From a virus, in IMG/VR virus record IMGVR_UViG_3300048080_000167, positions 1 to 56,185 of that record: a stretch of DNA of 56,185 nt; one strand, 5' to 3'. The notes beneath the pieces were generated by a model that worked only from the letters and a program-made list of their open reading frames with translations, did not search any database and was not told the origin of the DNA. The translations under genes and the position numbers were made by a program. Shown here one piece after another: positions 12,045 through 55,928 of the stretch; position 1 is the stretch's first letter, and each line of letters begins with the position of its first letter.

Positions 12045-12517
12045 ACGTGCCTGAGCCCGTCATCCTGCCCGCCGACTTCGCGCGAGCGGATCTGTCGCTC
12101 TTCGATCCCTGGTGGCTCCTGCGCGACGCGCTCGCGTTCTACGCTCGCAGCGAGACGTACCTGCCGACGCTCGAGGACGGGCGTTCGCAGACGACGGGCT
12201 ACCGTCGCTGGAAGAAGCCCGGCCGGCCGTGCCTGCGGGATCGGGGCGAGCGCGCGCGAGAAGCGCTCGCCATGCTCGAGGAGCTCGGGCGCGCGCCTGT
12301 ACAGGTCGCGATCCCCCTGGCTGCGCTGCTATCTCGCGTCGCCTATGAACGGCGCCGCGACAGAGGAAAGCACGATGGGAAAGACGAGAGTGGAAAAGCG
12401 CAAGCCCTCGGAGGAGCTGCTGGAGATCATCCTGGCCGATCTCCGAAAGCTCGTCGAAGATCACCTCGGCTTCGTCGAGACGAAGCTCCACAAGATGATG
12501 GGCACGGTCAAGGCTGA
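12041..12517 (+). CDS. Hypothetical protein; the last ~145 nt overlap the next gene out of frame
   Basis: GTGA overlap start. GC3 is high up to about 12370 and then collapses, but the first stop in this frame is at 12517. Confidence 0.5.
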   Translation: MNVPEPVILPADFARADLSLFDPWWLLRDALAFYARSETYLPTLEDGRSQTTGYRRWKKPGRPCLRDRGERAREALAMLEELGRAPVQVAIPLAALLSRVAYERRRDRGKHDGKDESGKAQALGGAAGDHPGRSPKARRRSPRLRRDEAPQDDGHGQG

Positions 12518-12728
12518 GATCGCGCTCGGCGTCTGCTTCGAGCAGGACGACGACTCGCCCCCGAGCGTGCGATGCTCGGCGCGCGTGAAGCTCCCGGGCG
12601 AGGAGAGCCCGGGGCATACGCTCGCGTGGCGCGCCGGCGGTCAGCTTCAGCTCGACTTGGGCAGCGACGCTTACGGCCCGGGTGACGGCGACGATCGGCA
12701 GGACCACGACCAGCCGAGCGCGGCTTAG
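12375..12728 (+). CDS. Hypothetical acidic protein
   Basis: RBS gaggaaag followed by ATG 12375. GC3 is high from this ATG onward. 117 aa. Confidence 0.6.
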   Translation: MGKTRVEKRKPSEELLEIILADLRKLVEDHLGFVETKLHKMMGTVKAEIALGVCFEQDDDSPPSVRCSARVKLPGEESPGHTLAWRAGGQLQLDLGSDAYGPGDGDDRQDHDQPSAA

Positions 12729-13358
12729 ATGGCGACGTGGCGCTGTGGCTCCTGCGCCCGTCTCGAGAGCACCGAGAGCCCGACGGCCCCGACGATCCGG
12801 TGCCCGGGTTGCGGGCGCACTCGAGCGTGGCAGCCCGTGGTGGTAGCGACGCTCGCGAACCTGACGGCGTGGATGCACCCGGAGAATCCTCGCCGGATCA
12901 GCGAGCACGACTTCGGCGTGCTATCGCGCTCGCTCGAGACGTTCGGGTGGGTGGGGCACATCGTCCTGAACCTGCGCAGCAGGAAGCAGGGCTGGCCGAA
13001 AGGATCGGCGCCGGGCGTCGTCTCGGGCCATCAGCGCATCCGGGCCGAGTCGGCACGTCACCCCGACACGAGCACCCACGAGGTGCCCGTTCTCTACGTC
13101 GACGTCAACGCGAAGCGCGAGCGCGAGCTGATGCTGGTGCTCAACCGGAACAGCGGCACCTGGGAGCCCGACGATCTGGAGCGCTTCCTGCGAGCGCTCG
13201 AAGCTGAAGGCGGCGACCTGACGCTCACCGGCTTTACGGAGCACGAGATCAAGGGCTGGCTCGGCCGGCTCGAGGAGACGGCGCCCGGGAGCTTCCCGAC
13301 GCCGGCCGAGGACACGAGCCACGAGTGTCCCAAGTGCGGCTATCGCTGGAAGCAATGA
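12729..13358 (+). CDS. ParB/sulfiredoxin-like nuclease-domain protein flanked by zinc-ribbon motifs
   Basis: HPENPRRISEHDFGVLSRSLETFGWVGHIVLN matches the ParB N-terminal (NPR) motif. CGSC..CPGC lies at the N-terminus and CPKC at the C-terminus. The stop overlaps the methyltransferase start (ATGA). Confidence 0.65.
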   Translation: MATWRCGSCARLESTESPTAPTIRCPGCGRTRAWQPVVVATLANLTAWMHPENPRRISEHDFGVLSRSLETFGWVGHIVLNLRSRKQGWPKGSAPGVVSGHQRIRAESARHPDTSTHEVPVLYVDVNAKRERELMLVLNRNSGTWEPDDLERFLRALEAEGGDLTLTGFTEHEIKGWLGRLEETAPGSFPTPAEDTSHECPKCGYRWKQ

Positions 13359-14569
13359 CGAAGCCCCCCTATCTGCGCCCGTCGATGGCCGAGACGCGCG
13401 CGGTGCCGAGCAACGGCTATCGCGTCGTCTCGACCTTCACGGGCTGCGGTGGCTCCTGCCTGGGCTTCCGGCTCGCCGGCTACTCGACGATCTGGGCATC
13501 TGAATTCGTGGATGTGGCGCGCGACTGCTATCGGCTCAACTTCCCAGACGTGCCGATCGACCCGCGCGACATTCGAACGGTCCAGCCGTCGGAGATCCTG
13601 AAGGCCATCGGGCTCGAGGCCGGCGCCATCGACGTGCTCGAAGGCTCCCCTCCCTGCGCCAGCTTCTCGACGGCGGGCAAGCGCCAGAAGCATTGGGGAA
13701 AGACGAAGCGCTACAGCGAGACGGAGCAGCGCTCGGATGATCTCTTTTTCGAATACGTGCGAGTGCTCGAGGGGCTTCAGCCCCGAGTCTTCGTCGCCGA
13801 GAACGTGCGCGGGCTCGCGATCGGTCGCGCCAAGGGCTACTACCTCGAGATCAAGGAACGGCTCGCCGGCGCCGGCTACCGGGTCGCGGCGCGCGTGGTC
13901 GACGCACAGTGGCTCGGCGTGCCCCAGCGCCGGGCGCGCGTCGTCTTTCTCGGCGTGAGAAACGATCTCGAGCGAGAGCCCGCGTTCCCCACGCCTCGCC
14001 CGTACCGATACAGCGTGCGCGACGCGCTCCCGGAAGTCGCCGCGACGTCGAGACGCCGGGGCAAGCTCCGGCCGTCTCACCAACCGGCTCCTACGATCGT
14101 CACGCACTGGCGAGGCTTCTATCAGATGCGGGCGATCGACGAGCACAAGCGCCCGGGCTCCGGAGCGAGCCTGCCCGGCGACGCCGGCCCGGAAGCGCTG
14201 AGCATCGAGCGCTTCGCGATCGCCGACGAAGCCCGGCGGCTGAAGCCCGGGGGCGTCTCCCGGAAGTACCTGAACCTCATCCGGGCCGACTCGCACGCCC
14301 CCTGCCCCACGATCACCCAGGCGGGCGGGAACCTGGGGGCCGCGGGCGTCGTGCATCCGAGCGCGGCGAGGAAATTCACCATCGACGAGCTCCGCGCGCT
14401 CTTCGGCTTCCCTGCCGACTTCGCGCTCGTCGGGAGCTACGCGCAACAGTGGGAACGGCTCGGCCGGAGCGTGCCCCCGCCGATGATGCAGGCGATCGCC
14501 GAGACGATCCGAGACGAGATCCTGGCGCCCGCCGACGCGCAGGCGCCGAGACGACGGAGGAGACGGTGA
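13355..14569 (+). CDS. dcm: DNA (cytosine-5) methyltransferase family enzyme with an atypical motif X (Gly-Arg instead of Gly-Asn)
   Basis: Motif I VSTFTGCGGSCLGF, motif IV EGSPPCASFS, motif VI VAENVRGL, motif VIII GVPQRRARVVF, motif IX FTIDELRALFGFPADF, motif X ERLGRSVPPP (Arg codon at 14465..14467). Confidence 0.9.
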   Translation: MTKPPYLRPSMAETRAVPSNGYRVVSTFTGCGGSCLGFRLAGYSTIWASEFVDVARDCYRLNFPDVPIDPRDIRTVQPSEILKAIGLEAGAIDVLEGSPPCASFSTAGKRQKHWGKTKRYSETEQRSDDLFFEYVRVLEGLQPRVFVAENVRGLAIGRAKGYYLEIKERLAGAGYRVAARVVDAQWLGVPQRRARVVFLGVRNDLEREPAFPTPRPYRYSVRDALPEVAATSRRRGKLRPSHQPAPTIVTHWRGFYQMRAIDEHKRPGSGASLPGDAGPEALSIERFAIADEARRLKPGGVSRKYLNLIRADSHAPCPTITQAGGNLGAAGVVHPSAARKFTIDELRALFGFPADFALVGSYAQQWERLGRSVPPPMMQAIAETIRDEILAPADAQAPRRRRRR

Positions 14570-15267
14570 GCCAAGCCGGGACGTGGAGCTTCAGCGCGAT
14601 CGGCGAGGACTTCGACCTGCACGTCAGGCGCCACCTGCCCGGATACGAAACGCTCCAGGAGCTGGTCACGTCGGTGGTGGCGTGGCGCCTGACGGACGGT
14701 TCACGCTTGCTCGACGTCGGCTGCTCGACCGGGTACACGCTCGGCCAAGTGCTCGCACGCTCCCCTCATCACGTGTGCGCCTACGGCGTCGACCCGGATG
14801 AGGGCATGATCGACAAGGCGCGCGAGCGCTTCGCGCCCCTGCCGGAGCTGCGCAGGCCGACGCTGGTGCCGTCGTCGATTCTCGAGTGGCAGCCCGCGGG
14901 CGCAGGGTTCGACGTGCTCCTGGCGCTCTTCTCTCTCCAGTTCATCGACCCGCCGGCCCGGCTCGTGGCGCTCGACCGGCTCGCCTCGTGGCTCCGGCCG
15001 GGCGCTCTCGTCGTCGTCGCCGAGAAATGCGAAGCGGCGAACGCGCAGGCGGCCGACCTGTGGTCGGGCCTCTACTCCGACTGGAAGCTGCTGCGCGACG
15101 TGCCGGCGCCGGAGATCCTGACGAAGTGGGCCCGGCTCCGGGGCCAGCTTATCCCGTGGCCGGCGAGCGCTTACGAAGCGTGGGCTGCTCGCGCCGGGCT
15201 CCGGGGCGACGTCATCTGGGCGTGGGGCCCGTTCCGGGCGTGGGCGTGGTGGAGAATCGCTGGCTAG
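14566..15267 (+). CDS. cmoA: CmoA-like SAM-dependent enzyme (carboxy-S-adenosylmethionine synthase family)
   Basis: RBS ggaggag followed by GTG, which overlaps the methyltransferase stop. Collinear with E. coli CmoA from memory: WSF..FD.HV.RHLPGY, LLDVGCSTG, VDPDEGMIDKARERF, LFSLQFIDPPAR, LRPGALVVVAEK, ...RLRGQL..., WAWGPF. Confidence 0.75.
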   Translation: MSQAGTWSFSAIGEDFDLHVRRHLPGYETLQELVTSVVAWRLTDGSRLLDVGCSTGYTLGQVLARSPHHVCAYGVDPDEGMIDKARERFAPLPELRRPTLVPSSILEWQPAGAGFDVLLALFSLQFIDPPARLVALDRLASWLRPGALVVVAEKCEAANAQAADLWSGLYSDWKLLRDVPAPEILTKWARLRGQLIPWPASAYEAWAARAGLRGDVIWAWGPFRAWAWWRIAG

Positions 15268-29504: not shown

Positions 29505-30047
29505 GTGGCGAAAGCTCGGAAGAGCAGGCGACTGGCCGGCGAGCCCCCGAAGCCGCCCCACGAGATCGCCCGCCGAGCCCCGGGCATGCGCCGCGTCCGC
29601 AGCGGGAAGGTCGGCCGGCCCCGCGTCGAGATCGACTGGCCGACCGTCGCGCGCTACGTCGAGACGGGCAACAACCTGCACCAGATCGCGCACTACCTCG
29701 GGATCAACCGGGCGACGCTCTGCCGCAGGATCGCCGAAGAGCGCGAAGGGCAGGCTGCCGTCCGGCAGGCGCGCTTCACCTTCGTCGACCGTTGCCGCCG
29801 GGGGATCGTCGCGCAGGCGATCCGAGGCAACAGCATGGCGATCAAGCTAGTCGGGGCGAACGTGCTCCACTGGCGCTCGCGCGACGTCATCGGGCTCGAG
29901 CACGCCGGCGGGGGCCCCGTGCAGGCCGAGGTGACGGTCAAGACGCTCGCCGATCTCGCGACGCTCGCGCTCGGCTACGAGCCCGAGACGGAAGCGAAGC
30001 CCGCGGACGTCGCCGAAGACGACGAGCTCACGGGCCTTGACTTCTGA
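29505..30047 (+). CDS. terS: Terminase small subunit candidate (HTH-containing)
   Basis: RBS aaggggga followed by GTG. NLHQIAHYLGINRATLCRRIAEE is an HTH. Lies directly upstream of, and overlapping, the large terminase gene. Confidence 0.6.
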   Translation: MAKARKSRRLAGEPPKPPHEIARRAPGMRRVRSGKVGRPRVEIDWPTVARYVETGNNLHQIAHYLGINRATLCRRIAEEREGQAAVRQARFTFVDRCRRGIVAQAIRGNSMAIKLVGANVLHWRSRDVIGLEHAGGGPVQAEVTVKTLADLATLALGYEPETEAKPADVAEDDELTGLDF

Positions 30048-31530
30048 GCCCGAGATCCTGGCTCGTCTCCGGGGACGCTTCGGGCCCGGCGTCCCGCGCT
30101 CTCCGGCGGGGCGCTCGGCTGCCGTCGTCGAGCGCTGCCAGCTCGATCCCGCGTGGTTCTTCTCGACGATCCTCGGGGCTCATCCGTGGCCGGCGCAGGT
30201 CGCGATCGCCGAAAGCGTGCGCGACCACCGGCACACGGTGGTGCGATCCTGCAACGCCGCAGGCAAGAGCTACACCGCGGCTCGGATCGTCTGCTGGTGG
30301 CTCTTCAGCTTCGCCCCGGCGATCGCCGTCACCACAGCGACCACAGCTCGGCAGGTTCGGGGCATTCTCTGGAAAGAGATCAGGCTGGCCGCCGGTCGCT
30401 CGAAGCTCCCGCTGGGTGGTCGCGTGCTCACCCAACAGTGGCAGATCGCCGACGATCGTTTCGCGATCGGCTTCACGGCCCCCGAGTACGATCCCGAGCG
30501 CTTCTCGGGCTGGCACTCCGACCATGTGCTCGTCGTCATCGACGAAGCGTCGGGCGTCTCGCGCGAGATCCAGGAAGCATGCGACGCGCTCCTGTCGGGT
30601 GGGCATGCGCGAAAGCTCCAGATCGGCAACCCCGTCGATCCCACGAGCGCCTTCAGCGACGCGTTTAAGCAGCCGGAAGTCTCGAAGCTCCGGGTGAGCG
30701 CCTTCGAGACTCCTAACTTCACCACCTTCGGCATCACCGAAGGTCACATCCTCGACGGCTCCTGGTCGCGTCGGATCGCGGAGCCCCTGCCCTATCCGAC
30801 GCTGGTGACGCCGGAGTGGGTCGCCGACGTCTACGGGCGCTATGGCCGAGACAACCCCTACTGCGCCGCACGCGTGCGCGCCGAGTTTCCCACCTATGCC
30901 ACGAATCAGCTCATCCCGCTCGAGTGGATCGAAGCGGCGATGACTCGCACGCTCGAGCCGGGCTCGCCGATCGACGTGGCATGCGACCCGGCCCGGCTCG
31001 GCCCCGACGAAGCGATCATCTACACGCGCCGGGGCCCCGTGCTTCGCGAGAGCTGGTCGGCCCGGAGCTGCACGCTCACCCAGGTAGTCGGCGAGTGCAT
31101 CCGGGCCCTGCGCGTCACCGGAGCGCGGACGCTCAAGATCGACGAGGACGGGCTCGGCTCGGGTGTCGTCGATCGCTGCCGGGAGATTCTGGAGCACAGC
31201 GCCGTGACCGTGCTCGGGCTCCGTGGCGGCCTGCCCCCTCGAGAGCCGGAGCGCTATTTCAACTCGCGCGCCGAGTGGTACTGGGGCCTCCGCGACCGGC
31301 TCGAGGCCGGCACCATCGACCTGCCCCCGGACGATCACCGGCTCGCCGCTCAGCTCGCGGCCATCCGGATCGACCCGAAGGACAGCAGGGGTCGCCTCAA
31401 GCTAGAGTCGAAAGACGAGATGACCAGGGTGCGGAGACTCGAGAGCCCCGACCGGGCCGACGCGGCGGCGATGGCGTTCGCCGCAGAGCAGCAAGTCGGG
31501 GGCACGCTTGGGCCCGTCCGGCTCTGGTAG
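30037..31530 (+). CDS. terL: Terminase large subunit
   Basis: Walker A-like CNAAGKSYT. Walker B HVLVVIDEASGV. C-terminal nuclease-like region with acidic residues (IDEDGLGSGVVD). 497 aa. Confidence 0.85.
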   Translation: MTSEPEILARLRGRFGPGVPRSPAGRSAAVVERCQLDPAWFFSTILGAHPWPAQVAIAESVRDHRHTVVRSCNAAGKSYTAARIVCWWLFSFAPAIAVTTATTARQVRGILWKEIRLAAGRSKLPLGGRVLTQQWQIADDRFAIGFTAPEYDPERFSGWHSDHVLVVIDEASGVSREIQEACDALLSGGHARKLQIGNPVDPTSAFSDAFKQPEVSKLRVSAFETPNFTTFGITEGHILDGSWSRRIAEPLPYPTLVTPEWVADVYGRYGRDNPYCAARVRAEFPTYATNQLIPLEWIEAAMTRTLEPGSPIDVACDPARLGPDEAIIYTRRGPVLRESWSARSCTLTQVVGECIRALRVTGARTLKIDEDGLGSGVVDRCREILEHSAVTVLGLRGGLPPREPERYFNSRAEWYWGLRDRLEAGTIDLPPDDHRLAAQLAAIRIDPKDSRGRLKLESKDEMTRVRRLESPDRADAAAMAFAAEQQVGGTLGPVRLW

Positions 31531-35195: not shown

Positions 35196-35248
35196 GCGCT
35201 CCCCTGCGACTCGTCATCGGGCTCGGCTACTCCCGAGGTGATTCGGCC

Positions 35249-35395
35249 GTGCGCGTGCGGCTCGAGTGCGGGCACGAGACGGTGCGACCCAGGGCAGGGT
35301 GGATCGACGGGCCCGACGAGCTACCGTGCTCGGCATGCGAACCCACGGGCTCTCCGGCTCCGTCAATCCCGGGCGCATCCAGCAGCGCGCGCTAG
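35249..35395 (+). CDS. Small zinc-ribbon-like protein (48 aa), tentative
   Basis: RBS gaggtga followed by GTG 35249. C.H...C..C pattern. High GC3. Overlaps the next gene by 61 nt. Confidence 0.35.
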   Translation: MRVRLECGHETVRPRAGWIDGPDELPCSACEPTGSPAPSIPGASSSAR

Positions 35396-35670
35396 CTCTC
35401 GCGCTCGCGCGCCAGGCCGAGCCTCGGATGTGGCTCCTCGGCTTCGAGGCTCGGGCCGTTCACCTGCACCGCTGGGCCGGGCTCTCGAAGCGAGACGCCG
35501 GCCGGCTCTGCCACCTGACCCGGACGAAGCGCCGGCAGGAGCAAAGCGTGGCCCGTCGAGAAGCGCGCAGCGATCGGCGCGCCGCGCGCCGTCACCGGCT
35601 CGAGGACTACCGGGAGAGCTGGCGCGCCCGGCTCGCGGCCCGGCTCGGCCGAGACGCGCTCGGCGTCTAG
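35335..35670 (+). CDS. Small basic protein
   Basis: ATG 35335. Very high GC3. Arg-rich and helical. Confidence 0.5.
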   Translation: MRTHGLSGSVNPGRIQQRALALALARQAEPRMWLLGFEARAVHLHRWAGLSKRDAGRLCHLTRTKRRQEQSVARREARSDRRAARRHRLEDYRESWRARLAARLGRDALGV

Positions 35671-35822
35671 GTCCGGCCGATCTCGCCGTCGCCGTCCGGC
35701 TCTTCCCAGGCCGGGCATGCTATGGTGGGCGCTGGCGACGCCGGGAGATCCGGGCGACTCTCCCACCCAGGAGCATCCCGCCTAGGGGGCCCGGCGTCGC
35801 CGTCGGGCTAGGGGAGCAGGGC

Positions 35823-38123
35823 GTGACGTTCGGCGAGCGAGTCCGTAGCCTCGTGCCCGTAAAGGTGGAGCGCCCGGACGCGGCGGTGCTCGCCTTGCTC
35901 TCTGAGCTCACCCAGGCTGGGGGGCTCCCGGCCGGCATGAAGCAGCTCACCCTGCCCGGCCGGGGCGGCACGTTCCTGCTGTCCTTCAACCGGACGGGCA
36001 CTACCGTCAACCGAGGCACCGAACAGCTCCTCCGGGCCTATGCGAGCCAGCCGTGGCTCCGGGGGATCGAAAGCAAGGTGGCCCGGGGCGTCGCGTCGAC
36101 GCCGTGGCAGGTGTTCGCCGTGAAGGGGGAGCCGGCGACCGATCCGCGCCGGCTGCGGTCGCTCAAGCAGCGGTTCCTGCTCTCGGGGCCGGCGACGCGC
36201 GCCGGGCTCGTGCGGGGGCTCGCGAAGCAGGGCGTCCTCGAGCCCCTGGACACTTCACCTCTGCTCGACTTTCTCGGGCGCGGGAATCCCTACCACCCCG
36301 GGCTCCTGACGATGCAGCTCACCCAGACGCATCTGGATCTCGTCGGCGAAGCCTTCTGGCTGATCGAACGCGATCAGCGCGGCCAGCCGCTCTTCTACTG
36401 GAACCTGCCCCCGTCGTGGGTGCGATCGACGCCGCTACCGGGCGATCCCGTGCCGACCTTCCGCGTGCGCTTCGACGGGCCCGAGGTGCCGATCCCGGCG
36501 AGCGAGATCATCTGGTATCAGGACCCCGATCCGCTCCAGCCCTACGGCCGGGGCACGGGCTTGGCGAAGGCTCTCGGCGACGAGTTGGACACCGACGAGT
36601 TCGCCGCCAAGTACCTGCGCCAGTGGTTCCTGAACGATGCCATCCCGCCGGTGATCGTCTCCGGAGACGGGCTCCAGCCGCAGGAAACGGCCCGGCTCGA
36701 GAGCGACTGGACGTCGAGGAATCAGGGATTCTGGCAGCGCTTCAAGCCGTACTTCATGAGCCGTAAGGTCGAAGTCACGAAGCTGGCCGCGAGCTTCGCC
36801 GAGATGCAGGTGGTCGACCTGCGAAAGAATCAGCGGGACACCGTCATGCAGGTGTACGGCGTGCCCCCGGAAGTCTTCGGCATTCTCGAGAACAGCAACC
36901 GAGCGACGATCGAAAGCGCCGACTTCCTGATGGCGCGCTGGGTTCTCGTGCCCCGGCTGGAGCTACTGCGCGCGACGGCGCAGCACCGGCTCGTGCCGAT
37001 GTTCGGCGACAACCTGCTGCTCGACTACGTCTCGCCGGTCGCCGAGGACAAGGAGTTCACGCTCAAGGTCATGCAGGCGGCGAGCTGGGCCTTCACCGCC
37101 GACGAGTGGCGCGCGCTCGCCGGGCGCGACGAGCTACCGGGAGACGGAGCGATCCATCTGGTGCCCTTCAACCTGCTCGGCGTCAAGCGGCTATCCGACC
37201 TGATCGCCGACCCGGCCGACGAGCGCGAGCCGGAGCCCGAGCCGGAGCCGACGCCCGAGCCGGACGACGAGGACGAGCCGGAGGACGAGCCCGAGGACGA
37301 AGAGGACGACGAGAAGAGCCGGCGGCTGGCGCTCCCGGCCCCGGACCGGAAGCAGGATGACCTGACCGGGGAGCAGGCCGAGCTGGTGCGGAGGACGCTC
37401 GCTGCGATCAAGTCGCGGCTGCTCGAAGAGCAGGTCGAGCCGGTCGCCGCGGGCACGCTCGAGGATTTCGGCAACCGGGCCGTGCGCGACGCGCTCGGGC
37501 AGGCCGCGGACTTCGACCTGAGCGATCCCCGGGTGGTCGACTACCTCAAGAATCGCACCAGCGACAAGATCCGGGGGGCGACTCGGACCACGCAGCGGCA
37601 GGTAGCGCGCGCTCTCGCGGCCGGCTTCGCCGAAGGCGAGAGCATCGACCGGCTCTCGCAGCGCGTGCGAGCCGTCTTCCGGGTCGCCAGCGCCGTGCGC
37701 GCGCACACCATCGCCAGGACCGAGACGGTGCGCGCCGCCAACTTCGGCACGCTCGAGGGCTCCCGGCAGGCGGGCGCGACGGGCAAGGAATGGGTAGCCG
37801 TGCGCGACGAGCGCACGCGGGACGCGCACCAGTCGCTCGACGGCACCGTGGTCGGGATCGACGAGGACTTCGTGAGCGAGAACGGGGGCTCTGGCCCCCA
37901 CCCGGGCGAGATGGACGAAGCGAGCGACGACATTCAGTGCCGGTGCACGACCACCTCCGTGTTCGGCGAAGCGAGCGCGAGCGCCCGGACGGCCGACGTC
38001 CGGGCGGCGATCTGGGCGGCCTTCGAGCAGGAGCGCGCGCCCTGGGAGCGCCTGCATCTGGCGGCGACGCGCCGGGGGCTCTCGGCGCAGAGCGCCGCGG
38101 CCGTGTCGGCTCTCCGGGGCTAG
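35823..38123 (+). CDS. Portal protein fused through an acidic Pro/Glu linker to a MuF / SPP1 gp7-like head-morphogenesis domain
   Basis: RBS ggggag followed by GTG 35823. Portal-like AYASQPWLRGIESKVARGVASTPWQVF... Linker EREPEPEPEPTPEPDDEDEPEDEPEDEEDDEK at about 37215..37320. MuF-like ...RAHTIARTETVRAANFG...WVAVRDERTRDAHQSLDG....F......PGE....C.RC. Confidence 0.8.
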   Translation: MTFGERVRSLVPVKVERPDAAVLALLSELTQAGGLPAGMKQLTLPGRGGTFLLSFNRTGTTVNRGTEQLLRAYASQPWLRGIESKVARGVASTPWQVFAVKGEPATDPRRLRSLKQRFLLSGPATRAGLVRGLAKQGVLEPLDTSPLLDFLGRGNPYHPGLLTMQLTQTHLDLVGEAFWLIERDQRGQPLFYWNLPPSWVRSTPLPGDPVPTFRVRFDGPEVPIPASEIIWYQDPDPLQPYGRGTGLAKALGDELDTDEFAAKYLRQWFLNDAIPPVIVSGDGLQPQETARLESDWTSRNQGFWQRFKPYFMSRKVEVTKLAASFAEMQVVDLRKNQRDTVMQVYGVPPEVFGILENSNRATIESADFLMARWVLVPRLELLRATAQHRLVPMFGDNLLLDYVSPVAEDKEFTLKVMQAASWAFTADEWRALAGRDELPGDGAIHLVPFNLLGVKRLSDLIADPADEREPEPEPEPTPEPDDEDEPEDEPEDEEDDEKSRRLALPAPDRKQDDLTGEQAELVRRTLAAIKSRLLEEQVEPVAAGTLEDFGNRAVRDALGQAADFDLSDPRVVDYLKNRTSDKIRGATRTTQRQVARALAAGFAEGESIDRLSQRVRAVFRVASAVRAHTIARTETVRAANFGTLEGSRQAGATGKEWVAVRDERTRDAHQSLDGTVVGIDEDFVSENGGSGPHPGEMDEASDDIQCRCTTTSVFGEASASARTADVRAAIWAAFEQERAPWERLHLAATRRGLSAQSAAAVSALRG

Positions 38124-38721: not shown

Positions 38722-38849
38722 CTATGGGAGGACGCCATGTCGGGGGGCTCGAGAGCCGGCAAGATGCCCGACCCTCACGAGGAGCCTTGACCCGCGCCAG
38801 CTTCGGCGTCTATGCTGGCCCCCGAGCGCTCCGGCTCCCGGGAGAGCAG

Positions 38850-40460
38850 ATGCCCCGTCGCCGCATCCGACGCTTCGTAGGCCCCGGCGTTTTCCGGTCG
38901 ATCGTCGAAGCGAGCAAGGCGACCGGGGCCGACGTTCCCGCCGTGCTCTATCCGGCCGAGGCCGACGCGAAGCGAGCCGAAGACGCCGAGGCGAACGCGC
39001 GCATCCTCCAGCTCACGATCAGCACGGCGAAGAGCGACCGGGACCGGGACTCCGTCTCGGCCGATGGCTGGGACTTCAAGAGCTACCGGAAGAACCCCGT
39101 GGTGCTCTTCTCGCACACCTACTGGAGCGAGCAGGCCCCGGTGGTCGGCACGTCGCTGGCCGAATGGGTCGAGCGCGACAAGGTCAAGAGCCGGATGGAG
39201 TTCACGCCCGAGGGGATGGTGCCCTTGGCCGATACGCTCTGGCGGCTCTACACCACGCGCTCGAGTAGCGGCAAGCCTTTCATGCGCGCCGTCTCCGTCG
39301 GCTTCATCCCCACGAAGTACGAGTTCGTGGACACGCCCGGTCGCGAGGGCGGTGTCGACTTCCAGAAGCAGGAGCTGCTGGAGTATTCCCTGGTGCCCGT
39401 GCCGGCGAACGCGGACGCGCTCTCCGACGTGAAGGGCTACGGCGCGGAGCTCGAGGAAGCGCGCGCCGCGGGGATCGACTGCGCGCCGCTCAAGACGTGG
39501 GCGGAAACCCTGCTCGACGGCTGGGTGAAGCACGAGGACGCGCTCTGGATGAAACGCGAGTGGGTCGAAGCTCTGCGCGAGTACGTCGACGAGAAGCACG
39601 CCGTTAGCGTCGTGCTCCCGAAGAGCCCGGCCGCGATCGCGAAGCAGGGGACCGAGATTCAGAGCATGCTGTTCGCCAAGGAAGAGAGCCCCGACGACGT
39701 CAACGGCGGCGACGGCTGGACGGCCGAGACGGCGAAGAGCTGGCTGGACGACCACGACTTCCGATCGGACAAGCTCGACGAGGGGAGCGAGGACGCTGCC
39801 TTCCTGCGCTTCCGCCAGTTCGACCCCGAAGCCTGCGCCCCCGACTCGATGATCACGCTCTCGGATGGCTTCCCGCCTGGCGTGCAGGCGACCGCCTGCG
39901 AGGTGGAGGACTCCGACTCGGCCGACGCCACGGCGCCGGCCGGCCCCACGAAGCTCCCGGCCGGGCTCAAGGCGCTCGTTTCGCTCGGCGGGCTCGTGCT
40001 CGTTGAGACGGCTCCGGCCGCGGGGCACACCCATGTCCTCGCCGTCAAGGTCCGGGAGAACGGCGAGCTGCTGACCGGGCTCTACACGACCCTGGTGGCG
40101 GAAGGTGGGGGCTTCGGGCCCCATGCGCACGCGTTCTCTCTCGAGGCGCAGGTGCCGGGCGATCAGCCTTGGGCCGGCGTGAGCGGGCTCGGCAGCGACG
40201 GCTCGCCGGCCCATGCAGCCGCGATCGAAGCCCGGGCCCCCGTGACCGTGCCGACGTCTGGGGTGCCGGCGACCAGGAGCCCGGCGCCGGCTGAGTCCGA
40301 GGCCGAGAGCTTCACCCTTGACCAGCTCGCCGCCATGCTCCAAAGTGAGGCCGAGCCGGACAGCTTCGAGCTAGGAGACGACGTGGACCTGAAGGCTCTG
40401 CTCCGGGAGACGGTCGCCGAGGAAATCGGTGAACGGCTCTCGGCGACGAGCGGGAGGTAA
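38850..40460 (+). CDS. HK97-family prohead protease (S78) with a ~300-aa C-terminal extension (scaffold-like)
   Basis: RBS gggagag followed by ATG 38850. S78-like DRDRDSV..DGWD...Y..NPVVLFSH...VG......VSVGF.P........ELLE.SLVPVPAN. The acidic extension is of unknown family. Confidence 0.75.
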   Translation: MPRRRIRRFVGPGVFRSIVEASKATGADVPAVLYPAEADAKRAEDAEANARILQLTISTAKSDRDRDSVSADGWDFKSYRKNPVVLFSHTYWSEQAPVVGTSLAEWVERDKVKSRMEFTPEGMVPLADTLWRLYTTRSSSGKPFMRAVSVGFIPTKYEFVDTPGREGGVDFQKQELLEYSLVPVPANADALSDVKGYGAELEEARAAGIDCAPLKTWAETLLDGWVKHEDALWMKREWVEALREYVDEKHAVSVVLPKSPAAIAKQGTEIQSMLFAKEESPDDVNGGDGWTAETAKSWLDDHDFRSDKLDEGSEDAAFLRFRQFDPEACAPDSMITLSDGFPPGVQATACEVEDSDSADATAPAGPTKLPAGLKALVSLGGLVLVETAPAAGHTHVLAVKVRENGELLTGLYTTLVAEGGGFGPHAHAFSLEAQVPGDQPWAGVSGLGSDGSPAHAAAIEARAPVTVPTSGVPATRSPAPAESEAESFTLDQLAAMLQSEAEPDSFELGDDVDLKALLRETVAEEIGERLSATSGR

Positions 40461-40464
40461 GACG

Positions 40465-41712
40465 ATGCCGGGGACCGCGACGATGACGCGAGACGGGATC
40501 AAGGCCCTCTTCCGGGAGATCGTGAAGGAGGGCGGCTTCGACGTCGACGCGATCGTCAAGCGCGCCGTCGACGAAGCGCGCAAGGCCGCCGCCGAAGAGC
40601 AGGCGAAGCAGAGCACCGAGTGGATGGCGAAGCTGGTGCAGGCGCGCGGGAAGTCCTCGGAGGAGCTCGAGCGCGACAAGCACGAGAAGGGGCTCGGAGC
40701 CGCACGCATCATCCGGGCTCTCGCGTCGGCGAAGGGTTCGCAGGCCGACGCCATCACCTTCGCCGAGAAGACGTGGGGCAAGGATCACGACGTCACCAAG
40801 GCGCTCGCGGCCGGCGACTCGACGGCCGGAGGTTTCCTGCTCTCGCCCCAGTTCTCGAGCGATCTGATCGAGCTGCTGCGGCCGGCGGCCGTGGTCCGGC
40901 GCATGCGGCCCACGATGCTCCCGATGCCCCAGGGCCAGCTCTCCATTCCGAAGCTGACGGCCGGCGCGACGGCGACCTACACGGGCGAGAATCAGAACAT
41001 CGTCTCCAGCCAGCAGACGACGGGGATGCTCAACCTCGTCTGGAAGAAGCTCGCTGCGCTCGTGCCGATCTCGAACGATCTCCTGCGCTTCGCGTCGGTC
41101 AACGCGGACATGATGGTGCGCGACGACGTCGTGGCCGGGATCGCGACGCGAGAAGACGCCGGCTTCATCCGAGACGACGGGACGGTCAACACGCCGAAGG
41201 GGCTCCGGTTCCAGGTCCCCGCGGCCAATACCTTCGCCGCCAACGGCACCGTGAACCTCGCGAACGTCACGACCGATCTCGGGCAGGCGGTGCTCCGGCT
41301 CCTGAACGGGAACAGCCGGATGCTCCGGCCCGGGTGGCTCTTCGCCCCCCGGACGCTCACCTTCCTCATGTCCATCCGGGACGGGAACGGCAACTATGCC
41401 TTCCGGCCGGAGCTGCTGGCCGGGAACCTGCACGGCTTCCCCTTCGCCACCACCACCCAGATCCCGGTGAACCTCGGCGCCGGCACGGAGAGCGAGGTCT
41501 ACCTCGTGGACTTCGCGGACGCGGTGATCGCCGAGAGCGATCAGGTGATGGTCGACGCGAGCCCGAACGCGGCCTATTTCGACTCGGCGTCGGGCGCGGT
41601 GCAGTCGGCGTTCTCCCGGGACCAGTCGGTCATCCGGGCGATCGCGCGACACGACTTCGGCATGCGACACGACGAGAGCGTGGCCGTCATCACGGCCGTG
41701 CTCTGGATCTAG
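40465..41712 (+). CDS. Major capsid protein, HK97 family
   Basis: RBS gggagg followed by ATG. Coiled N-terminal region, then ...GDSTAGGFLLSPQFSSDLIELLRPAAVVRRM....MP.G.L.IPK.....A.Y.GEN......Q...G...L..KKLAALVPISNDLLR. Confidence 0.85.
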   Translation: MPGTATMTRDGIKALFREIVKEGGFDVDAIVKRAVDEARKAAAEEQAKQSTEWMAKLVQARGKSSEELERDKHEKGLGAARIIRALASAKGSQADAITFAEKTWGKDHDVTKALAAGDSTAGGFLLSPQFSSDLIELLRPAAVVRRMRPTMLPMPQGQLSIPKLTAGATATYTGENQNIVSSQQTTGMLNLVWKKLAALVPISNDLLRFASVNADMMVRDDVVAGIATREDAGFIRDDGTVNTPKGLRFQVPAANTFAANGTVNLANVTTDLGQAVLRLLNGNSRMLRPGWLFAPRTLTFLMSIRDGNGNYAFRPELLAGNLHGFPFATTTQIPVNLGAGTESEVYLVDFADAVIAESDQVMVDASPNAAYFDSASGAVQSAFSRDQSVIRAIARHDFGMRHDESVAVITAVLWI

Positions 41713-45593: not shown

Positions 45594-45956
45594 ATGGCTC
45601 TGCTTGCGGTCACCGAAGTCTCCGAGGCCGCTGCGGGCGTCGATCTCGACGCCGTCGACGTCGCCGCGAATGCAGGCGGGGACTCCTACCCGAACGACGA
45701 CGACACCTTCCTCTACATCAACAATCAGGACGCGTCGCCGAAGACGGTCACGATCACCGCTCAGCGCACGGCCGTCCGCAAGGAAGGGTTCGGGGAGCTG
45801 ACCATCGCGTCGATCGCCGTGGTGGTGCCGGCGACGTCGCGTCGGCTCATCAAGGTGCCCATCGGCTCCTACTCCGACGCCAGCGGACGCGTCCAGCTCA
45901 CCTACTCGGCCGTCACGTCGGTCACGGTCGCCGCCCTGCGCGCCAAGCGGCAGTAG
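45594..45956 (+). CDS. Paralogue 1 of a tandemly duplicated 118-120-aa protein
   Basis: MALLAVTEV...AGGDSYPNDDDTFLYINN....KTVTITAQRTAVRKEGFGELT...SGRVQLTYSAVTSVTVAALRAKRQ. Confidence 0.65.
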   Translation: MALLAVTEVSEAAAGVDLDAVDVAANAGGDSYPNDDDTFLYINNQDASPKTVTITAQRTAVRKEGFGELTIASIAVVVPATSRRLIKVPIGSYSDASGRVQLTYSAVTSVTVAALRAKRQ

Positions 45957-45975: not shown

Positions 45976-46332
45976 ATGGCCCTGCTCGCCGTCACCGAGA
46001 TCCGAGCGCTGGAGATCGACCCCGACGCCGTCGCCGTCGCGGCCGCGGCCGGGGGCGACTCCTACCCGAACGACGATGACACGATGTTCTACATCCGGAA
46101 CGCCGGCGGCGGCTCGCAGACGGTGACGATCGCCGTCCAGCGGACGGCCGTGCGGAAGGAAGGGTTCGGCGAGCTCACCCTGGCGGCGATCGCGATGGTG
46201 GTGGGAGCCGGCCTCCGGAAGCTGATCAAGGTCCCGAGCGGGGGCTACGCCGACGCCAGCGGCCGAGTGCAGGTCACGTACACCGGCGTGACGTCGGTGA
46301 CGGTCGCGGCGCTGCGCACGCAGCGGCAGTAG
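45976..46332 (+). CDS. Paralogue 2 of the tandem pair
   Basis: MALLAVTEI...AGGDSYPNDDDTMFYIRN....QTVTIAVQRTAVRKEGFGELT...SGRVQVTYTGVTSVTVAALRTQRQ. Confidence 0.65.
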   Translation: MALLAVTEIRALEIDPDAVAVAAAAGGDSYPNDDDTMFYIRNAGGGSQTVTIAVQRTAVRKEGFGELTLAAIAMVVGAGLRKLIKVPSGGYADASGRVQVTYTGVTSVTVAALRTQRQ

Positions 46333-51482: not shown

Positions 51483-52008
51483 GGCTGCGGGAGATGCCGG
51501 CATGGCGACGGTAGCCCCGACCCGGCGAGCGCTCGTCGACAACGCCCGAACCTTCGTGGGCTCGCGCTTCGTCCACCAGGGACGCATGAGGACCGTGCTC
51601 CGGGGCCGGCGCGCCTTCGGGGGGATCGACTGCGCCGGGATGACGATTGTGCCCGCGCAGGAGATCGGGCTACGACCGGGCGTCGGCGTGCACATCTACC
51701 GGCGCGAGCCGAACGGCTCGCTGATGCAGGCGGAGCTCGCGCGCTGGCTGACGCCGAAGGCTCTCACGGCCGGGCTCCCGGGCGACGTCGTCTACCTGAA
51801 GCACCCGATGGCGAAGTATGCGCACCATCTCGGACTGCTCTCCGATCTCTACTTCGACGGGCGCCCCCTGCTCGGCATCATCCACGCTTGTCTGCGCCAC
51901 CGGCGCGTCGTCGAGTGCTGCTTCGACGAAGAGCTGCGGGCCTGGACCACCGCCTGCTACAGCTACCCCGAGCTGGTAGGGGAGACGACGTGGCCCGAGC
52001 GAAGCTGA
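51469..52008 (+). CDS. NlpC/P60-family cell-wall peptidase of the tail (RcGTA g14-like)
   Basis: Catalytic Cys context GGIDCAGM, His context AHHLGLL. The start may be ATG 51502 rather than 51469. Confidence 0.7.
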   Translation: MRKREAAGDAGMATVAPTRRALVDNARTFVGSRFVHQGRMRTVLRGRRAFGGIDCAGMTIVPAQEIGLRPGVGVHIYRREPNGSLMQAELARWLTPKALTAGLPGDVVYLKHPMAKYAHHLGLLSDLYFDGRPLLGIIHACLRHRRVVECCFDEELRAWTTACYSYPELVGETTWPERS

Positions 52009-55000
52009 GCCGGAGAGAGCACGTCGCCCGGGCCGGACTGCTCGGCGCGCTCGTCGTGCTCTCCCCGGTCGCCCTCCAGGGCATCGAGACGGCGATCATC
52101 ATCGCCATCGCGCAGGTCGCGATCCAGGCGGCCGCGATCGCGGCGAGCATCCTGCTCCGGCCGAAACCGCAAGGCCAGCACACCGAAGGGCCCCGGCTCG
52201 AGGACCGGGTGGTCACGATCTCGAGCTACGGGCAGCCGATCCCGATTCAGCTCGGGGGCGTGGTGCGAGTCTCCGGCGGGATCATCTGGTCGCGCGACAT
52301 TCGCGAAGTCAAGACCCACCACAGCACGTCGGCAGGGAAGGGGGGCGGTGGGGGCAGCATCTCGTCGAACACCTATAGCTACTTCGGCGACTTCGCCGCG
52401 AGCTTCGGCGAAGGGGTCGCGGCCGTCGACGGGCTCCTGAAGGTCTGGTGCAATGGGAAACTGATCATCGACAACACGAAGCTCGGCGACGCCGTCAAGA
52501 AGTATCCGGACCTGCAAGTGAGATTCTACGTCGGAGACGCTACCCAGCTCGCCGACACGCTGATCTCGAGCGTCGAAGGGCTCGCGAACACGCCCGCGTA
52601 CCGAGGCCAGTGCTATGCCGTCTTCGAGAACCTGCCCCTGGCCGACTTCGGCAATCACCTGCCGAACCTGGAAGCGCTCGTCGCCTACGCTGCGGACGCG
52701 AACAAGACGAGCACGATCATCGACGCGCCCGGCGGTGGGGGGCTCATCAACGCCGCCTTCCTGCTCGACCGAAACCGAAACACCATCTACTGGATTCAGA
52801 ATCCCGGGCAGCCCACCACCGTCGGGATCGACGCTCAGGCGGTGGTCCGGTACAACCCGGTGCTCAATGACGTCGAATATAAGCGCTTCGAGCTAGACGT
52901 CTCGTCAAACGACATAGTGTCGGAGCTAGAGCTAGACGACCTAGGCTTCCTCTACGCGCTCACTCGGGTCGGCTCGACGGGCTACCGGGTCCACCGGCTC
53001 GACGCGCTCACGGGCTCGACCCTGCTCGTCTCCGGAGACTCGACGGTCACGACGGGCACCTATCGGCCCGACCAGTCCGTCTACATCAGCAAGGCCGCGG
53101 CCGGTGGCATCGGCAGCTACATCGTCACCAGCACGCTCGCTAGCTCGGGGCAGACGGGGCACGGCCGGCTCTCGCTCATCAACCTGAACGCCAACGGCGA
53201 CGTGTCGGGAGCCGGCGATATTTCGATTCAGGGCGTGCGCGACCTGCCGGAGATGCAGCCCGGGCTCGGAATGGTCCGCTCGATCTGCGCCGACAAGAAC
53301 GGCGACGTGTGGGTTATCGCGCGCACCGACGCCGGCATCGTCTTCCTCTACCAGCTCGAGATCGTCGCGAGCACGCCGACGACGGCTTCGCTTCAGATCA
53401 AGGCGACGCACAACCTGACGACGCTGACCACGATGACCGACGCTCACCACATCGGCTACGACGTCGCGAGCCACGCGCTACTCATCGGGAAGATCAACAA
53501 CTCCGGAACCCCGGCTCTCCGGCAGGTCCGAAAGTTCGATCTCGCCACGCTCACGACGCTCTGGACGCTCTCGGAGGACCACGCGAGCGTGACCGTCGGC
53601 GACCTGATCCGAGAAGCGACGGGCGGGCTCGTGCTCTCCAACCGCTTCCTGTTCAAGTACGCGGCGCAGGCCGGGCTGCTCTTTACGACCGACGTGTCGA
53701 GTCAGACGGACGGGATCGTCTATCGCATCCGAGTCTCCGACGGCGTGCTCGAGCGCATCTACGATCTCGGCGACTACTGGACGTCGCCGGGGCTCTGCGA
53801 TCAAGTGCTGTACGACTCGCTCACGAATCTCTGCTACGCCGTCCGGAACACGACGCCGTTCGACCTGCGACGCATCGCCTTCGATCGGGTCACGCAGCTC
53901 ACCACGACGCTCCAGTCGGGCGTCGAGGCCCTATGCGCTCGAGCCGGGCTCGACGTCGCCACCCAGGTCGACGCGTCGGGGCTCGCGAGTGCACAGCTCC
54001 GGGGCTACCCCATCGCGAATCTGCCGAGCACGGTGCGAGCGCTCATCGAGCCGCTAGCGCTCGCGTACTTCTTCGACGGTGTCGAGAGCGACTTCAAGAT
54101 CAAGTTCATCCTGCGCGGTGGCGCCGTCGCAGCGACGATCGCGGAGGACGATCTCGGCGCATTCTCGGAGACGTCGCCCCCCGAGTCGCTGCAACGGCTC
54201 CAGGAAGAGATCGGGCAGGACGTCGAGCTACCGGAGCAGGTCGACGTCCGCTTCATCGACGTCAACAAGGATCTCCAGGTAGGCGATCAGTACGAGAAGC
54301 GCATCGGCGCGCCGGCCCCCACGACGCTCTCCCGAAAGAAAGTCACCCTGGACGTGCCGATCGTCTTCAACGCCACCGAAGCCCGGTCGATCGTCGAGCG
54401 CTTCATCTACCAGGAATGGGTCAAGAAATATGGCTTCAAGTATCAGACACTCCCGAAGCACCTACGACTCGACCCGAGCGACGTGGTGAACATCTCGAAG
54501 GACGGGCTCACGTTCGGCGCTCGACTCGCCGAAGTGGTGCTAGGTGGCGGGCTCGTCGTCGAGCACATCGCCGAGAGCGAAGATTCCGAGACGTACTCTT
54601 TCACGAATCAGACGGGTGACGACAATCTCTTCGTCGGGGACACCTTCGGCTCCGTCGGCGCTAGCGAGCTGTTCCTGTTCGACTATCTGCTCCGCGACGC
54701 GGACGACCCGACGGCCGGGCTCGCGCTGCCGCTCTACATGGGCTCGGCTCCCCAGCAGGAGACGGCGTTCTGGCGGGGCGCGTCGATGCAGAAAAGCGTG
54801 GACGGGGGCCTGACCTTCGCGCAGATCGAAGTGGCGCGCGACGATTCGACCTGGGGGCGCACCGTCGTCACGGGCGCGCTCGGGCTGACGCCCGCCTTCG
54901 CGCTCGCGCCCTACTTCGACTGGATGGTCTGGGATCGTATCACGACATTCCGGGTCCGGATCGCGTCGGGCTCAGCTCGGCTCGCTTCCGTCGCCGAGGC

Positions 55001-55928
55001 CGCCCTGCTGGCCGATGCCAACCTGAACGTGCTGATGGTCGGTCAGGAGCTGATTCGCTTCGCGACCGTCGTGGACAACGGTGACGGCAGCTTCGACTTC
55101 TCGACGCTCATCCGGGGACGCAGGGGCACGGGCTGGGCCGCGGAGAACGGGCACCGGGGCGGAACGCTCGTGGTCCTGCTCGACCAGGATGCGCTCTCCT
55201 ACTCGGGGCAGCCCCCGGCCGAGCGAGACGTCGTGCGGCACTGGCGCGCCGTGACGCTCGCCGGGCTGCTCGACAACTCGGCTCAACGGGGGCAGGCGAT
55301 CAGCGGGCTCGGGCTGAAACCCTACCGGGTCCGGCACATCGAGAGCACGCGAGACGGGGCGAACCTGATCGTGGTGTCGTGGCAGCGGCAGGCGCGCGTC
55401 GGCGGCGAGCTGGACTGGAATGACGGCGTGACCGATCCCCCGATCGGGGAGACGGCTGAAAACTACCGGATTGACTTCATCAACCCTAGCTTCCGGGGCG
55501 TCTCGACCGGGATCACGGCGACGACGCTCACCCAGACGGGCGCCGGCTGGACGGTCGACGAGCACGCCGGGCGCTACGTACTCCATCGCCACAACCCGCA
55601 CCACGGCTCGAGCGCGACGCCGACGGACTTCACCAGGGGTCGCGTCCACCTGCGCCGCGTGCTCTCGAATACCGCGACCGTGCTGACGCTCGCCGATGCG
55701 AGCTGGGCGTTCACGCCGACCGTCGGAGATAGCTACTTCATCCAGGATCTCGTCGCGCCCGTCGTCTTGCGGACGTCGACGCAGACGCTCAAGACCTTCG
55801 TGTACTCGTCGGCTCAGCAGGTCACGGACGGCTTCACGGCCGGGCAGGGGATTCTCGCGATGGTGGCGCAGCTCTCGAGCGCCGTAGGGCTGGGAGTAGT
55901 AAGCTGGGAGCCTGTCTTCGGGACCTAG
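51990..55928 (+). CDS. Host-specificity / central tail fibre protein (RcGTA g15-like), ~1310 aa
   Basis: RBS ggggag followed by GTG 51990. Hydrophobic N-terminus, then EGPRLEDRVVTISSYGQPIPIQLGGVVRVSGGIIWSRDI...SYFGDFA, as in GTA-type host-specificity proteins. Confidence 0.8.
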   Translation: MARAKLSRREHVARAGLLGALVVLSPVALQGIETAIIIAIAQVAIQAAAIAASILLRPKPQGQHTEGPRLEDRVVTISSYGQPIPIQLGGVVRVSGGIIWSRDIREVKTHHSTSAGKGGGGGSISSNTYSYFGDFAASFGEGVAAVDGLLKVWCNGKLIIDNTKLGDAVKKYPDLQVRFYVGDATQLADTLISSVEGLANTPAYRGQCYAVFENLPLADFGNHLPNLEALVAYAADANKTSTIIDAPGGGGLINAAFLLDRNRNTIYWIQNPGQPTTVGIDAQAVVRYNPVLNDVEYKRFELDVSSNDIVSELELDDLGFLYALTRVGSTGYRVHRLDALTGSTLLVSGDSTVTTGTYRPDQSVYISKAAAGGIGSYIVTSTLASSGQTGHGRLSLINLNANGDVSGAGDISIQGVRDLPEMQPGLGMVRSICADKNGDVWVIARTDAGIVFLYQLEIVASTPTTASLQIKATHNLTTLTTMTDAHHIGYDVASHALLIGKINNSGTPALRQVRKFDLATLTTLWTLSEDHASVTVGDLIREATGGLVLSNRFLFKYAAQAGLLFTTDVSSQTDGIVYRIRVSDGVLERIYDLGDYWTSPGLCDQVLYDSLTNLCYAVRNTTPFDLRRIAFDRVTQLTTTLQSGVEALCARAGLDVATQVDASGLASAQLRGYPIANLPSTVRALIEPLALAYFFDGVESDFKIKFILRGGAVAATIAEDDLGAFSETSPPESLQRLQEEIGQDVELPEQVDVRFIDVNKDLQVGDQYEKRIGAPAPTTLSRKKVTLDVPIVFNATEARSIVERFIYQEWVKKYGFKYQTLPKHLRLDPSDVVNISKDGLTFGARLAEVVLGGGLVVEHIAESEDSETYSFTNQTGDDNLFVGDTFGSVGASELFLFDYLLRDADDPTAGLALPLYMGSAPQQETAFWRGASMQKSVDGGLTFAQIEVARDDSTWGRTVVTGALGLTPAFALAPYFDWMVWDRITTFRVRIASGSARLASVAEAALLADANLNVLMVGQELIRFATVVDNGDGSFDFSTLIRGRRGTGWAAENGHRGGTLVVLLDQDALSYSGQPPAERDVVRHWRAVTLAGLLDNSAQRGQAISGLGLKPYRVRHIESTRDGANLIVVSWQRQARVGGELDWNDGVTDPPIGETAENYRIDFINPSFRGVSTGITATTLTQTGAGWTVDEHAGRYVLHRHNPHHGSSATPTDFTRGRVHLRRVLSNTATVLTLADASWAFTPTVGDSYFIQDLVAPVVLRTSTQTLKTFVYSSAQQVTDGFTAGQGILAMVAQLSSAVGLGVVSWEPVFGT

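Follow-up and report, generated by a model that had tools for sequence, protein, structure and literature searches.

The viral genome IMGVR_UViG_3300048080_000167 of the IMG/VR database, analysed here as one stretch of 56,185 nucleotides (positions 1 to 56,185; hereafter the window), encodes three adjacent genes that, by homology and gene context, very probably constitute a ligase-less CmoA-CmoX DNA modification module giving rise to 5-carboxymethylcytosine (5cxmC). The module consists of a ParB-like gene, a homologue of the DNA cytosine C5-carboxymethyltransferase CmoX, and a CmoA-like gene for a candidate carboxy-S-adenosylmethionine (Cx-SAM) synthase. An initial annotation of the same DNA proposed that the phage combines its own Cx-SAM supply with a pre-adapted cytosine C5-methyltransferase (MTase) to produce 5cxmC. 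The proposal agrees well with strong homology to the characterised system of Synechococcus phage S-B43; its claim to novelty does not hold. The view that such a dedicated natural pair is uncharacterised has been superseded, because Yang et al. (Nat Commun, Dec 2025; PMC12783734) described the CmoA-CmoX(-CmoY) pathway of S-B43 biochemically, structurally, and in virion DNA, and catalogued 5,615 CmoX candidates. The window system adds no new principle to the published one.

In S-B43, CmoA makes Cx-SAM from S-adenosylmethionine (SAM) and prephenate, and CmoX (SpCmoX) transfers the carboxymethyl group onto cytosine C5 at GC sites of double-stranded DNA; the wild-type enzyme uses Cx-SAM only and does not accept SAM. 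In the 1.9 Å structure 8YF3, SpCmoX Arg350 occupies the position of M.HhaI Asn304 and contacts the carboxymethyl group of Cx-SAM, and the R350N variant is dead. The 5cxmC product blocks HhaI and is turned into a glycine amide by CmoY, a ligase resembling Asn synthetase; the S-B43 virion DNA contains the glycine amide only, with no 5cxmC. Alongside the CmoX candidates, which are recognised by SPPC and R350, the catalogue lists 4,257 CmoA proteins, 2,251 ligases, and ParBc neighbours in 1,660 CmoX contigs, to which no role is assigned there (PMC12783734). The features of the window that correspond to this pathway are as follows.

12729..13358, + strand: ParB-like (ParBc) protein, 209 amino acids; phrog_620 match, GHQRIRA box
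13355..14569, + strand: CmoX homologue, candidate DNA cytosine C5-carboxymethyltransferase, 404 amino acids; PF00145 and 8YF3 homology
13655..13657, + strand: codon of the predicted catalytic Cys101 in GSPPC (motif IV), aligned with SpCmoX Cys98 in SPPC
14465..14467, + strand: cgg codon of Arg371 at the motif-X Asn position, aligned with SpCmoX R350
14556..14562, + strand: Shine-Dalgarno-like GGAGGAG inside the MTase gene near its end; 3 nt separate it from the GTG of the CmoA-like gene
14566..15267, + strand: CmoA-like protein, candidate carboxy-SAM synthase, 233 amino acids; 4GEK, TIGR00740, and phrog_4752 matches
15139..15141, + strand: cgg codon of Arg192 in an LRG motif of the CmoA-like protein, candidate functional replacement of E. 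coli Arg199

The window and S-B43 both feature a phage CmoA homologue together with a C5-MTase that carries SPPC and a motif-X Arg, the genes are adjacent and co-oriented in each, and both lack CmoB. They differ in gene order (ParB-CmoX-CmoA in the window versus CmoA-CmoY-CmoX in S-B43), in genome type (a 56-kb tailed phage of 69% G+C versus a 214-kb cyanomyovirus), and in sequence, with 35% identity for CmoX, 27% for CmoA, and an unalignable target-recognition region. S-B43 has CmoY whereas the window does not, and glycine amidation is not expected in the window phage.

Evidence for the CmoX assignment begins with the open reading frame (ORF) at 13355..14569. It matches Pfam PF00145 (E=1.3e-53, profile positions 1-322 of 324) and contains motifs I, IV, VI, VIII, IX, and X as STFTGCGGS, GSPPCASFS, AENVRGL, QRRAR, FGFPADF, and ERLGRSVPPP; the full C5-MTase motif set reported in the initial annotation is thereby present, string for string. 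GSPPC spans residues 97-101 and aligns with the SPPC of SpCmoX (S95-P96-P97-C98). The motif-X Arg noted there is likewise exact: in both the HMMER alignment to 8YF3 and a multiple alignment, R371 falls in the SpCmoX R350 column (ERLGRSVPP versus ERVGRMVPP), the column in which DNMT1 carries the Gly-Asn of motif X. M.HhaI carries Gly-Asn at this position as well. R371 is therefore predicted, by alignment, to bind the carboxylate of Cx-SAM. The SpCmoX cofactor contacts F25, E47, F48, and D69 are kept in the window MTase (STF, SEF, and RDI aligned column by column), and its active-site Glu (AENV) and Arg (QRRAR, RxR) match the SpCmoX columns.

Searches against known structures point the same way. 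Among PDB sequences, 8YF3 is the best match of the MTase (E=6.2e-65), followed by DNMT1 (5e-22) and M.HaeIII (~1e-19). An AlphaFold2 model with a predicted local distance difference test (pLDDT) score of 86.0 again has 8YF3 as its best fold match (E=8.4e-30 versus 4.6e-21 for the next), with a template modelling (TM) score of 0.84 normalised to the target. By sequence and model, the window MTase is closer to SpCmoX than to ordinary C5-MTases. Its identity is 34.7% to SpCmoX and 48.8% to gp123 of Streptomyces phage TurkishDelight, the closest relative from a cultured phage.

The consequence of a cationic residue in motif X is known from engineered enzymes. The initial annotation stated that M.MpeI gains carboxymethyltransferase activity when this Asn is replaced by Lys or Arg, and this holds: in that enzyme, Cx-SAM is used best when residue 374, an Asn in the wild type, has a cationic side chain (PMC13288465). 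In M.MpeI N374K and M.CviPI Y205K/R from the Kohli laboratory, the cationic motif-X residue leads to Cx-SAM use and 5cxmC (PMC13288465), and the window MTase likewise has Arg. The engineered enzymes are laboratory mutants of CpG or GpC specificity that have kept SAM activity, whereas the window MTase is a natural protein from a clade in which the Arg is ancestral.

Conservation across the clade is nearly complete. GSPPC and ER.GR.VPP occur in all ten aligned MTases that adjoin a CmoA-like gene (the window, five metagenomic relatives, TurkishDelight, Moraxella phage Mcat8, S-CRM01, and S-B43). From 4,936 MTase homologues found in the database at E<=1e-20, the best 120 were checked for motifs; SPPC is present in every one and the motif-X Gly-Arg in 119. 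The sole Gly-Asn case, protein P0036 (ARLGNAVPP; L016:3914-5665), comes from a 7-kb contig on which a ParB-like gene is kept upstream and no CmoA-like ORF occurs. It may represent a natural reversion to SAM use, on the evidence of one case and a short contig.

The association with CmoA was surveyed in viral loci, as the initial annotation had recommended. A locus search with the single MTase sequence retrieved no viral relatives and an alignment-based search was needed; 80 IMG/VR loci with a CmoX relative were gathered with an MTase profile built from an alignment, and their six-frame ORFs were scanned. A CmoA-like ORF on the same strand (>=100 bits) is present in 78 of the 80 loci and a ParB-like ORF in 74. 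Because one of the two locus-gathering patterns held the GR motif, Arg counts in this set are biased, while the CmoA co-occurrence is not. A ligase was found in 28 loci, 19 of the glutamine-amidotransferase/Asn-synthetase type seen in TurkishDelight and nine of the SpCmoY type. The remaining 52 of 80 have CmoA without a ligase, which makes the window layout the commonest. Given the Gly-Arg in 119/120 best homologues and the CmoA-like gene in nearly every locus, the MTase-CmoA arrangement is not due to chance.

Individual layouts illustrate the same order. Close relatives of the CmoA-like gene that lie on long, phage-like contigs (L008/L009, L010, L012, L013, and L014) or on the 4-kb contig L097 have a C5-MTase gene directly upstream, and ParB_N is upstream of the MTase in all of these except L097, which begins at the MTase gene. 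Most layouts feature a small opposite-strand gene immediately 3' of the module, with an HTH_3 domain in four of six (L012, L014, and L097 for example). Beyond this small gene, L097 (GCA_049670545.1, a contig binned as Polyangiales) encodes a TROVE/Ro60-vWA gene, and L010, L012, and L014 encode an AAA/nSTAND3 ATPase. TurkishDelight also resembles the window: its MTase has the GR motif and is flanked by a ParB-like gene directly upstream and a CmoA-like gene on the downstream side, and its host is high in GC. Its gp121-gp125 are annotated as ParB, ParB, methyltransferase, glutamine amidotransferase, and methyltransferase; a 466-amino-acid ligase of the glutamine-amidotransferase/Asn-synthetase type thus separates CmoX from CmoA, whereas the window has none.

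Within the window, start and stop codons indicate that the ParB-like, CmoX, and CmoA genes are a translationally coupled block. The stop of ORF 12345-12728 is followed one base on by the start of the ParB-like gene; the TGA stop of the ParB-like gene overlaps the ATG of the MTase gene (ATGA); and the TGA of the MTase gene at 14567-14569 overlaps the GTG at 14566 that opens the CmoA-like gene (GTGA). The last overlap and the ribosome-binding site ahead of it had been described in the initial annotation and are read at the same positions here. GTG 14566 is the sole in-frame start codon between GGAGGAG and the conserved GTWSF N-terminus, and the Joint Genome Institute (JGI) gene call for this protein (P0001, 233 amino acids) uses the identical start. 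A longer N-terminus was considered and rejected, as no in-frame start occurs from GTG 14566 up to a far-upstream Arg-rich stretch that is out of frame. For the MTase, the JGI call begins at Met11 (394 amino acids) and drops the KPPY.VP.M motif kept in all relatives. Keeping KPPY.VP means starting no later than 13361, so the Met11 start is too short, and ATG 13355, overlapping the ParB-like stop, is the better one.

The CmoA-like protein aligns with E. coli CmoA over nearly its entire length. 4GEK is its best PDB sequence match (E=1.9e-16, residues 3-218 against 28-243, 24.6% identity), in keeping with the collinearity proposed in the initial annotation, all quoted strings of which are present. 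It matches phrog_4752 over its full length (E=2e-33) and the biochemically validated SpCmoA at 27% identity (E=8e-24), and its top NCBIfam family is CmoA, TIGR00740. An AlphaFold2 model (pLDDT 88.8) has 4GEK as top fold match (TM 0.84-0.86). Contact residues were taken from the E. coli enzyme (Y39, D62, G64, S66, D89, D117, N132, E164, and R199; PMC3663124), and the SAM/Cx-SAM contacts Y39, D62, G64, S66, D89, and E164 are kept. The CmoA fold and these six SAM-binding residues link the window protein to the E. coli CmoA/CmoB pathway to tRNA cmo5U34 (4GEK, 4IWN; PMC3663124). That pathway includes CmoB and has tRNA as acceptor, whereas the window lacks CmoB and its predicted acceptor is DNA.

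The window protein belongs to a small group, with only 23 close relatives. Its closest cellular relatives, at 50-54% identity, lie at L005:2576-5801 and L015:5001-8568. In the former, the neighbours are a TIGR04325-family MTase, a PaaK-like AMP-forming ligase, and a GT4 glycosyltransferase; in the latter, a 628-amino-acid AsnB-type amidotransferase and a class I MTase. Both loci follow a logic parallel to CmoA-CmoX-CmoY, with a substrate that is probably not DNA. They hint at carboxymethylation followed by amidation of non-DNA substrates and suggest a possible cellular source of the phage genes.

Both potential partners of the pathway, a ligase and CmoB, were sought across the window, which is a complete genome (see below). 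Searches with SpCmoY and TurkishDelight gp124 returned no CmoY-type ligase (best tblastn E of 0.39; no phmmer match), and 97 candidate ORFs spanning the window, scanned against Pfam, contained no Asn_synthase, GATase, ATP-grasp, adenylating, or amidotransferase domain. The same scan gave no match to CmoB (Methyltransf_9) at E<=1e-3, in agreement with the initial annotation, which had seen no CmoB-like partner. It found one DNA_methylase and one class I methyltransferase, the latter being the CmoA-like ORF, and no second methyltransferase. As these scans are negative in a complete genome, the phage appears from its sequence to encode neither CmoY nor CmoB, and 5cxmC itself is therefore the likely end product. 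Amidation of 5cxmC by a ligase, which is common in such systems, had not been considered in the initial annotation.

What the sequence shows is how the genes are built and arranged, to what they are homologous, and that synteny and the catalytic and cofactor-binding residues are conserved; the chemistry and the block to HhaI come from a homologue. For the window phage, enzyme activity, end product, target sequence, and biological role are inferences, and we propose the following course of events. The coupled ParB-like, CmoX, and CmoA genes would be expressed together, and the CmoA homologue would convert host SAM and prephenate into Cx-SAM. After replication, the CmoX homologue would flip target cytosines out of double-stranded phage DNA; Cys101 of the SPPC motif would attack cytosine C6, and Glu149 would also take part. 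The C5 carbanion would then take the carboxymethyl group from Cx-SAM, the carboxylate of which would be held by Arg371, and beta-elimination would leave 5-carboxymethylcytosine. Without a CmoY-type ligase, 5cxmC would most likely be the final mark, and it would shield the phage DNA from host restriction enzymes.

The alternative that survives best is that 5cxmC is an intermediate, converted further (to an amide or ester, for example) by an unrecognised enzyme, which could be the ParB/Srx-like zinc-ribbon protein, another phage ORF, or a host enzyme. We consider this unlikely. In its favour, S-B43 virions held only the glycine amide and no 5cxmC (PMC12783734), the majority of window ORFs have no Pfam or PHROG assignment, and the ParB-like gene, which the initial annotation overlooked, is a conserved third member of the module. 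The product of the latter matches phrog_620, "ParB-like partition protein" (E=5.6e-21), has no Pfam match at E<=1e-3 (PF02195 included), and scores 132-150 bits by phmmer against the ParB_N-annotated neighbours in L008-L014. A ParB_N homologue lies directly upstream of the MTase in L008, L010, L012, L013, L014, and TurkishDelight. A C-terminal CxxC (ECPKCGY.W; ECPKCGYRW in the window), just ahead of the MTase start, is kept in all ParB-like partners compared, while an N-terminal CxxC...CxxC (WRCGSC...RCPGCG) occurs in the window protein alone. Yet ParB-like genes are equally present in ligase-bearing loci, such as TurkishDelight with two ParB genes and a ligase, and this favours a DNA-binding or targeting role over that of a substitute ligase. 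Moreover, ParB domains are often fused to ordinary DNA MTases (phrog_498; PMC12783734), and the Pfam scan offers no ATP-grasp, adenylating, or amidotransferase candidate for the conversion. A related and tentative proposal, to which we give rather little weight, is that in ligase-less loci the ParB/Srx-like zinc-ribbon protein is a working third component that loads CmoX or activates or derivatises the 5cxmC carboxylate, a distinct route to hypermodification. If so, the virion mark of ligase-less systems would be 5cxmC or another derivative.

A second alternative, which we regard as very unlikely, is that the MTase is an ordinary SAM-dependent enzyme making 5-methylcytosine (5mC) and that the downstream gene encodes an unrelated methyltransferase of the CmoA/CysG/BelI fold that acts on small molecules or RNA. 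Several observations count against the carboxymethylation pathway here, most of them in the CmoA-like protein. Its TIGR00740 score of 51.5 bits is far under the curated cutoff of 193.3; its fold is as close to CysG and BelI, which are true C-methyltransferases (TM 0.83/0.90), as to CmoA; E. coli N132 and D117 are replaced by Leu and Ser; and R199, which forms a salt bridge to the Cx-SAM carboxylate in E. coli CmoA (Byrne et al. 2013; PMC3663124), aligns with Trp188. In the MTase, the target-recognition region (~205-330) does not align with that of SpCmoX by HMMER and the model gives residues 232-272 a pLDDT below 50, so the GC specificity of SpCmoX is not transferable to it. Furthermore, a mixture of 5mC and 5cxmC is possible, since the engineered Lys/Arg MTases still carry out SAM-dependent methylation and SAM exceeds Cx-SAM ~400-fold in abundance in E. 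coli (PMC13288465).

Validated SpCmoA also scores below the TIGR00740 cutoff, at 115.6 bits, as do TurkishDelight (89.5), Mcat8 (63.5), the clade members tested (71-77 bits), and S-CRM01, and CmoA stays the top NCBIfam family for all of them. The cutoff consequently does not discriminate, and disqualification of the window protein on this ground was rejected. SpCmoA has Leu for N132, Asn for D117, and Glu at the R199 position. An Arg four residues further on is found in SpCmoA, S-CRM01, and TurkishDelight and is invariant in the window's clade; in the window this is Arg192, which, one helical turn along, could plausibly serve the role of R199. As CysG and BelI match equally well, the fold alone is no proof of Cx-SAM synthesis and is not used as evidence of activity. 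With a low score, a non-discriminating fold, and a shifted Arg, the strongest evidence for CmoA-like function is genomic context rather than sequence. Several observations speak against an ordinary 5mC enzyme: the Arg is near-universal in the clade, the CmoA-like gene accompanies it in 78/80 loci, the single Asn member has no CmoA-like ORF on its short contig, and wild-type SpCmoX accepts Cx-SAM only (PMC12783734).

Least probable of all is a mainly metabolic role for the CmoA homologue, draining host SAM against SAM-dependent defences or feeding host CmoB for a tRNA wobble change: SAM depletion was raised as a possibility by the S-B43 authors, whose phage CmoA is ~10x faster than E. coli CmoA (PMC12783734), but this would leave unexplained why almost every relative couples the gene so tightly to a C5-MTase with the Arg, and such an effect is compatible with DNA carboxymethylation as a side effect, not a replacement.

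Beyond the module, the window is a complete phage genome of 56,058 bp, as indicated by an exact 127-nt direct terminal repeat (1-127 = 56059-56185), a signature of circular assembly. Its G+C content is 69.4%. No tRNA genes were found in the window and no Rfam matches anywhere along it. It is a tailed phage with the following structural genes, and the Pfam scan also finds tail-tube, tail-completion, and tail-assembly-chaperone genes.

30037-31530: large terminase (Pfam/PHROG assignment)
35238-38123: portal with Mu-F domain
38724-40460: protease/scaffold-like gene
40429-41712: HK97-type capsid
up to 51888-55928: tail proteins

The high G+C content, together with the related module on the 4-kb contig binned as Polyangiales, provides weak hints of the host. 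Five small minus-strand genes, with ATG at + coordinates 16880, 17190, 18147, 18713, and 38344, all start with MST(T/K)K, and a conserved ~60-nt leader lies upstream of each (repeat families D1, D3, and D4); one of the five stands alone between the portal and protease genes. A strong hairpin is formed by two of the leaders (z = -4.0 and -2.8) but not by the remaining ones, and none has an Rfam match. The leader may be a repeated promoter or translational operator. In the tail module, two adjacent paralogous genes of ~120 amino acids (45594-45956 and 45976-46332) comprise DNA repeats that share 80-83% identity and are spaced 376 nt apart.

In summary, a pathway predicted from raw sequence alone corresponds to one that experiments confirmed in 2025 for a homologous system of another phage. 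Relative to that system, the window phage is of further interest for its ligase-less state in a high-GC phage and for its conserved ParB-like partner with a C-terminal CxxC. Its CmoA represents a divergent clade whose carboxylate-binding Arg seems to have shifted by one helical turn. An exact 42-mer of its MTase gene has no match in the IMG/VR collection searched, so its CmoX may fall outside the 5,615 published candidates. The target-recognition region of this CmoX, unrelated to that of SpCmoX, could offer a new specificity for carboxymethylation-based sequencing and labelling tools. Finally, the phage offers a clean candidate for a natural virion whose DNA would bear 5cxmC itself, rather than its glycine amide, as the final mark.

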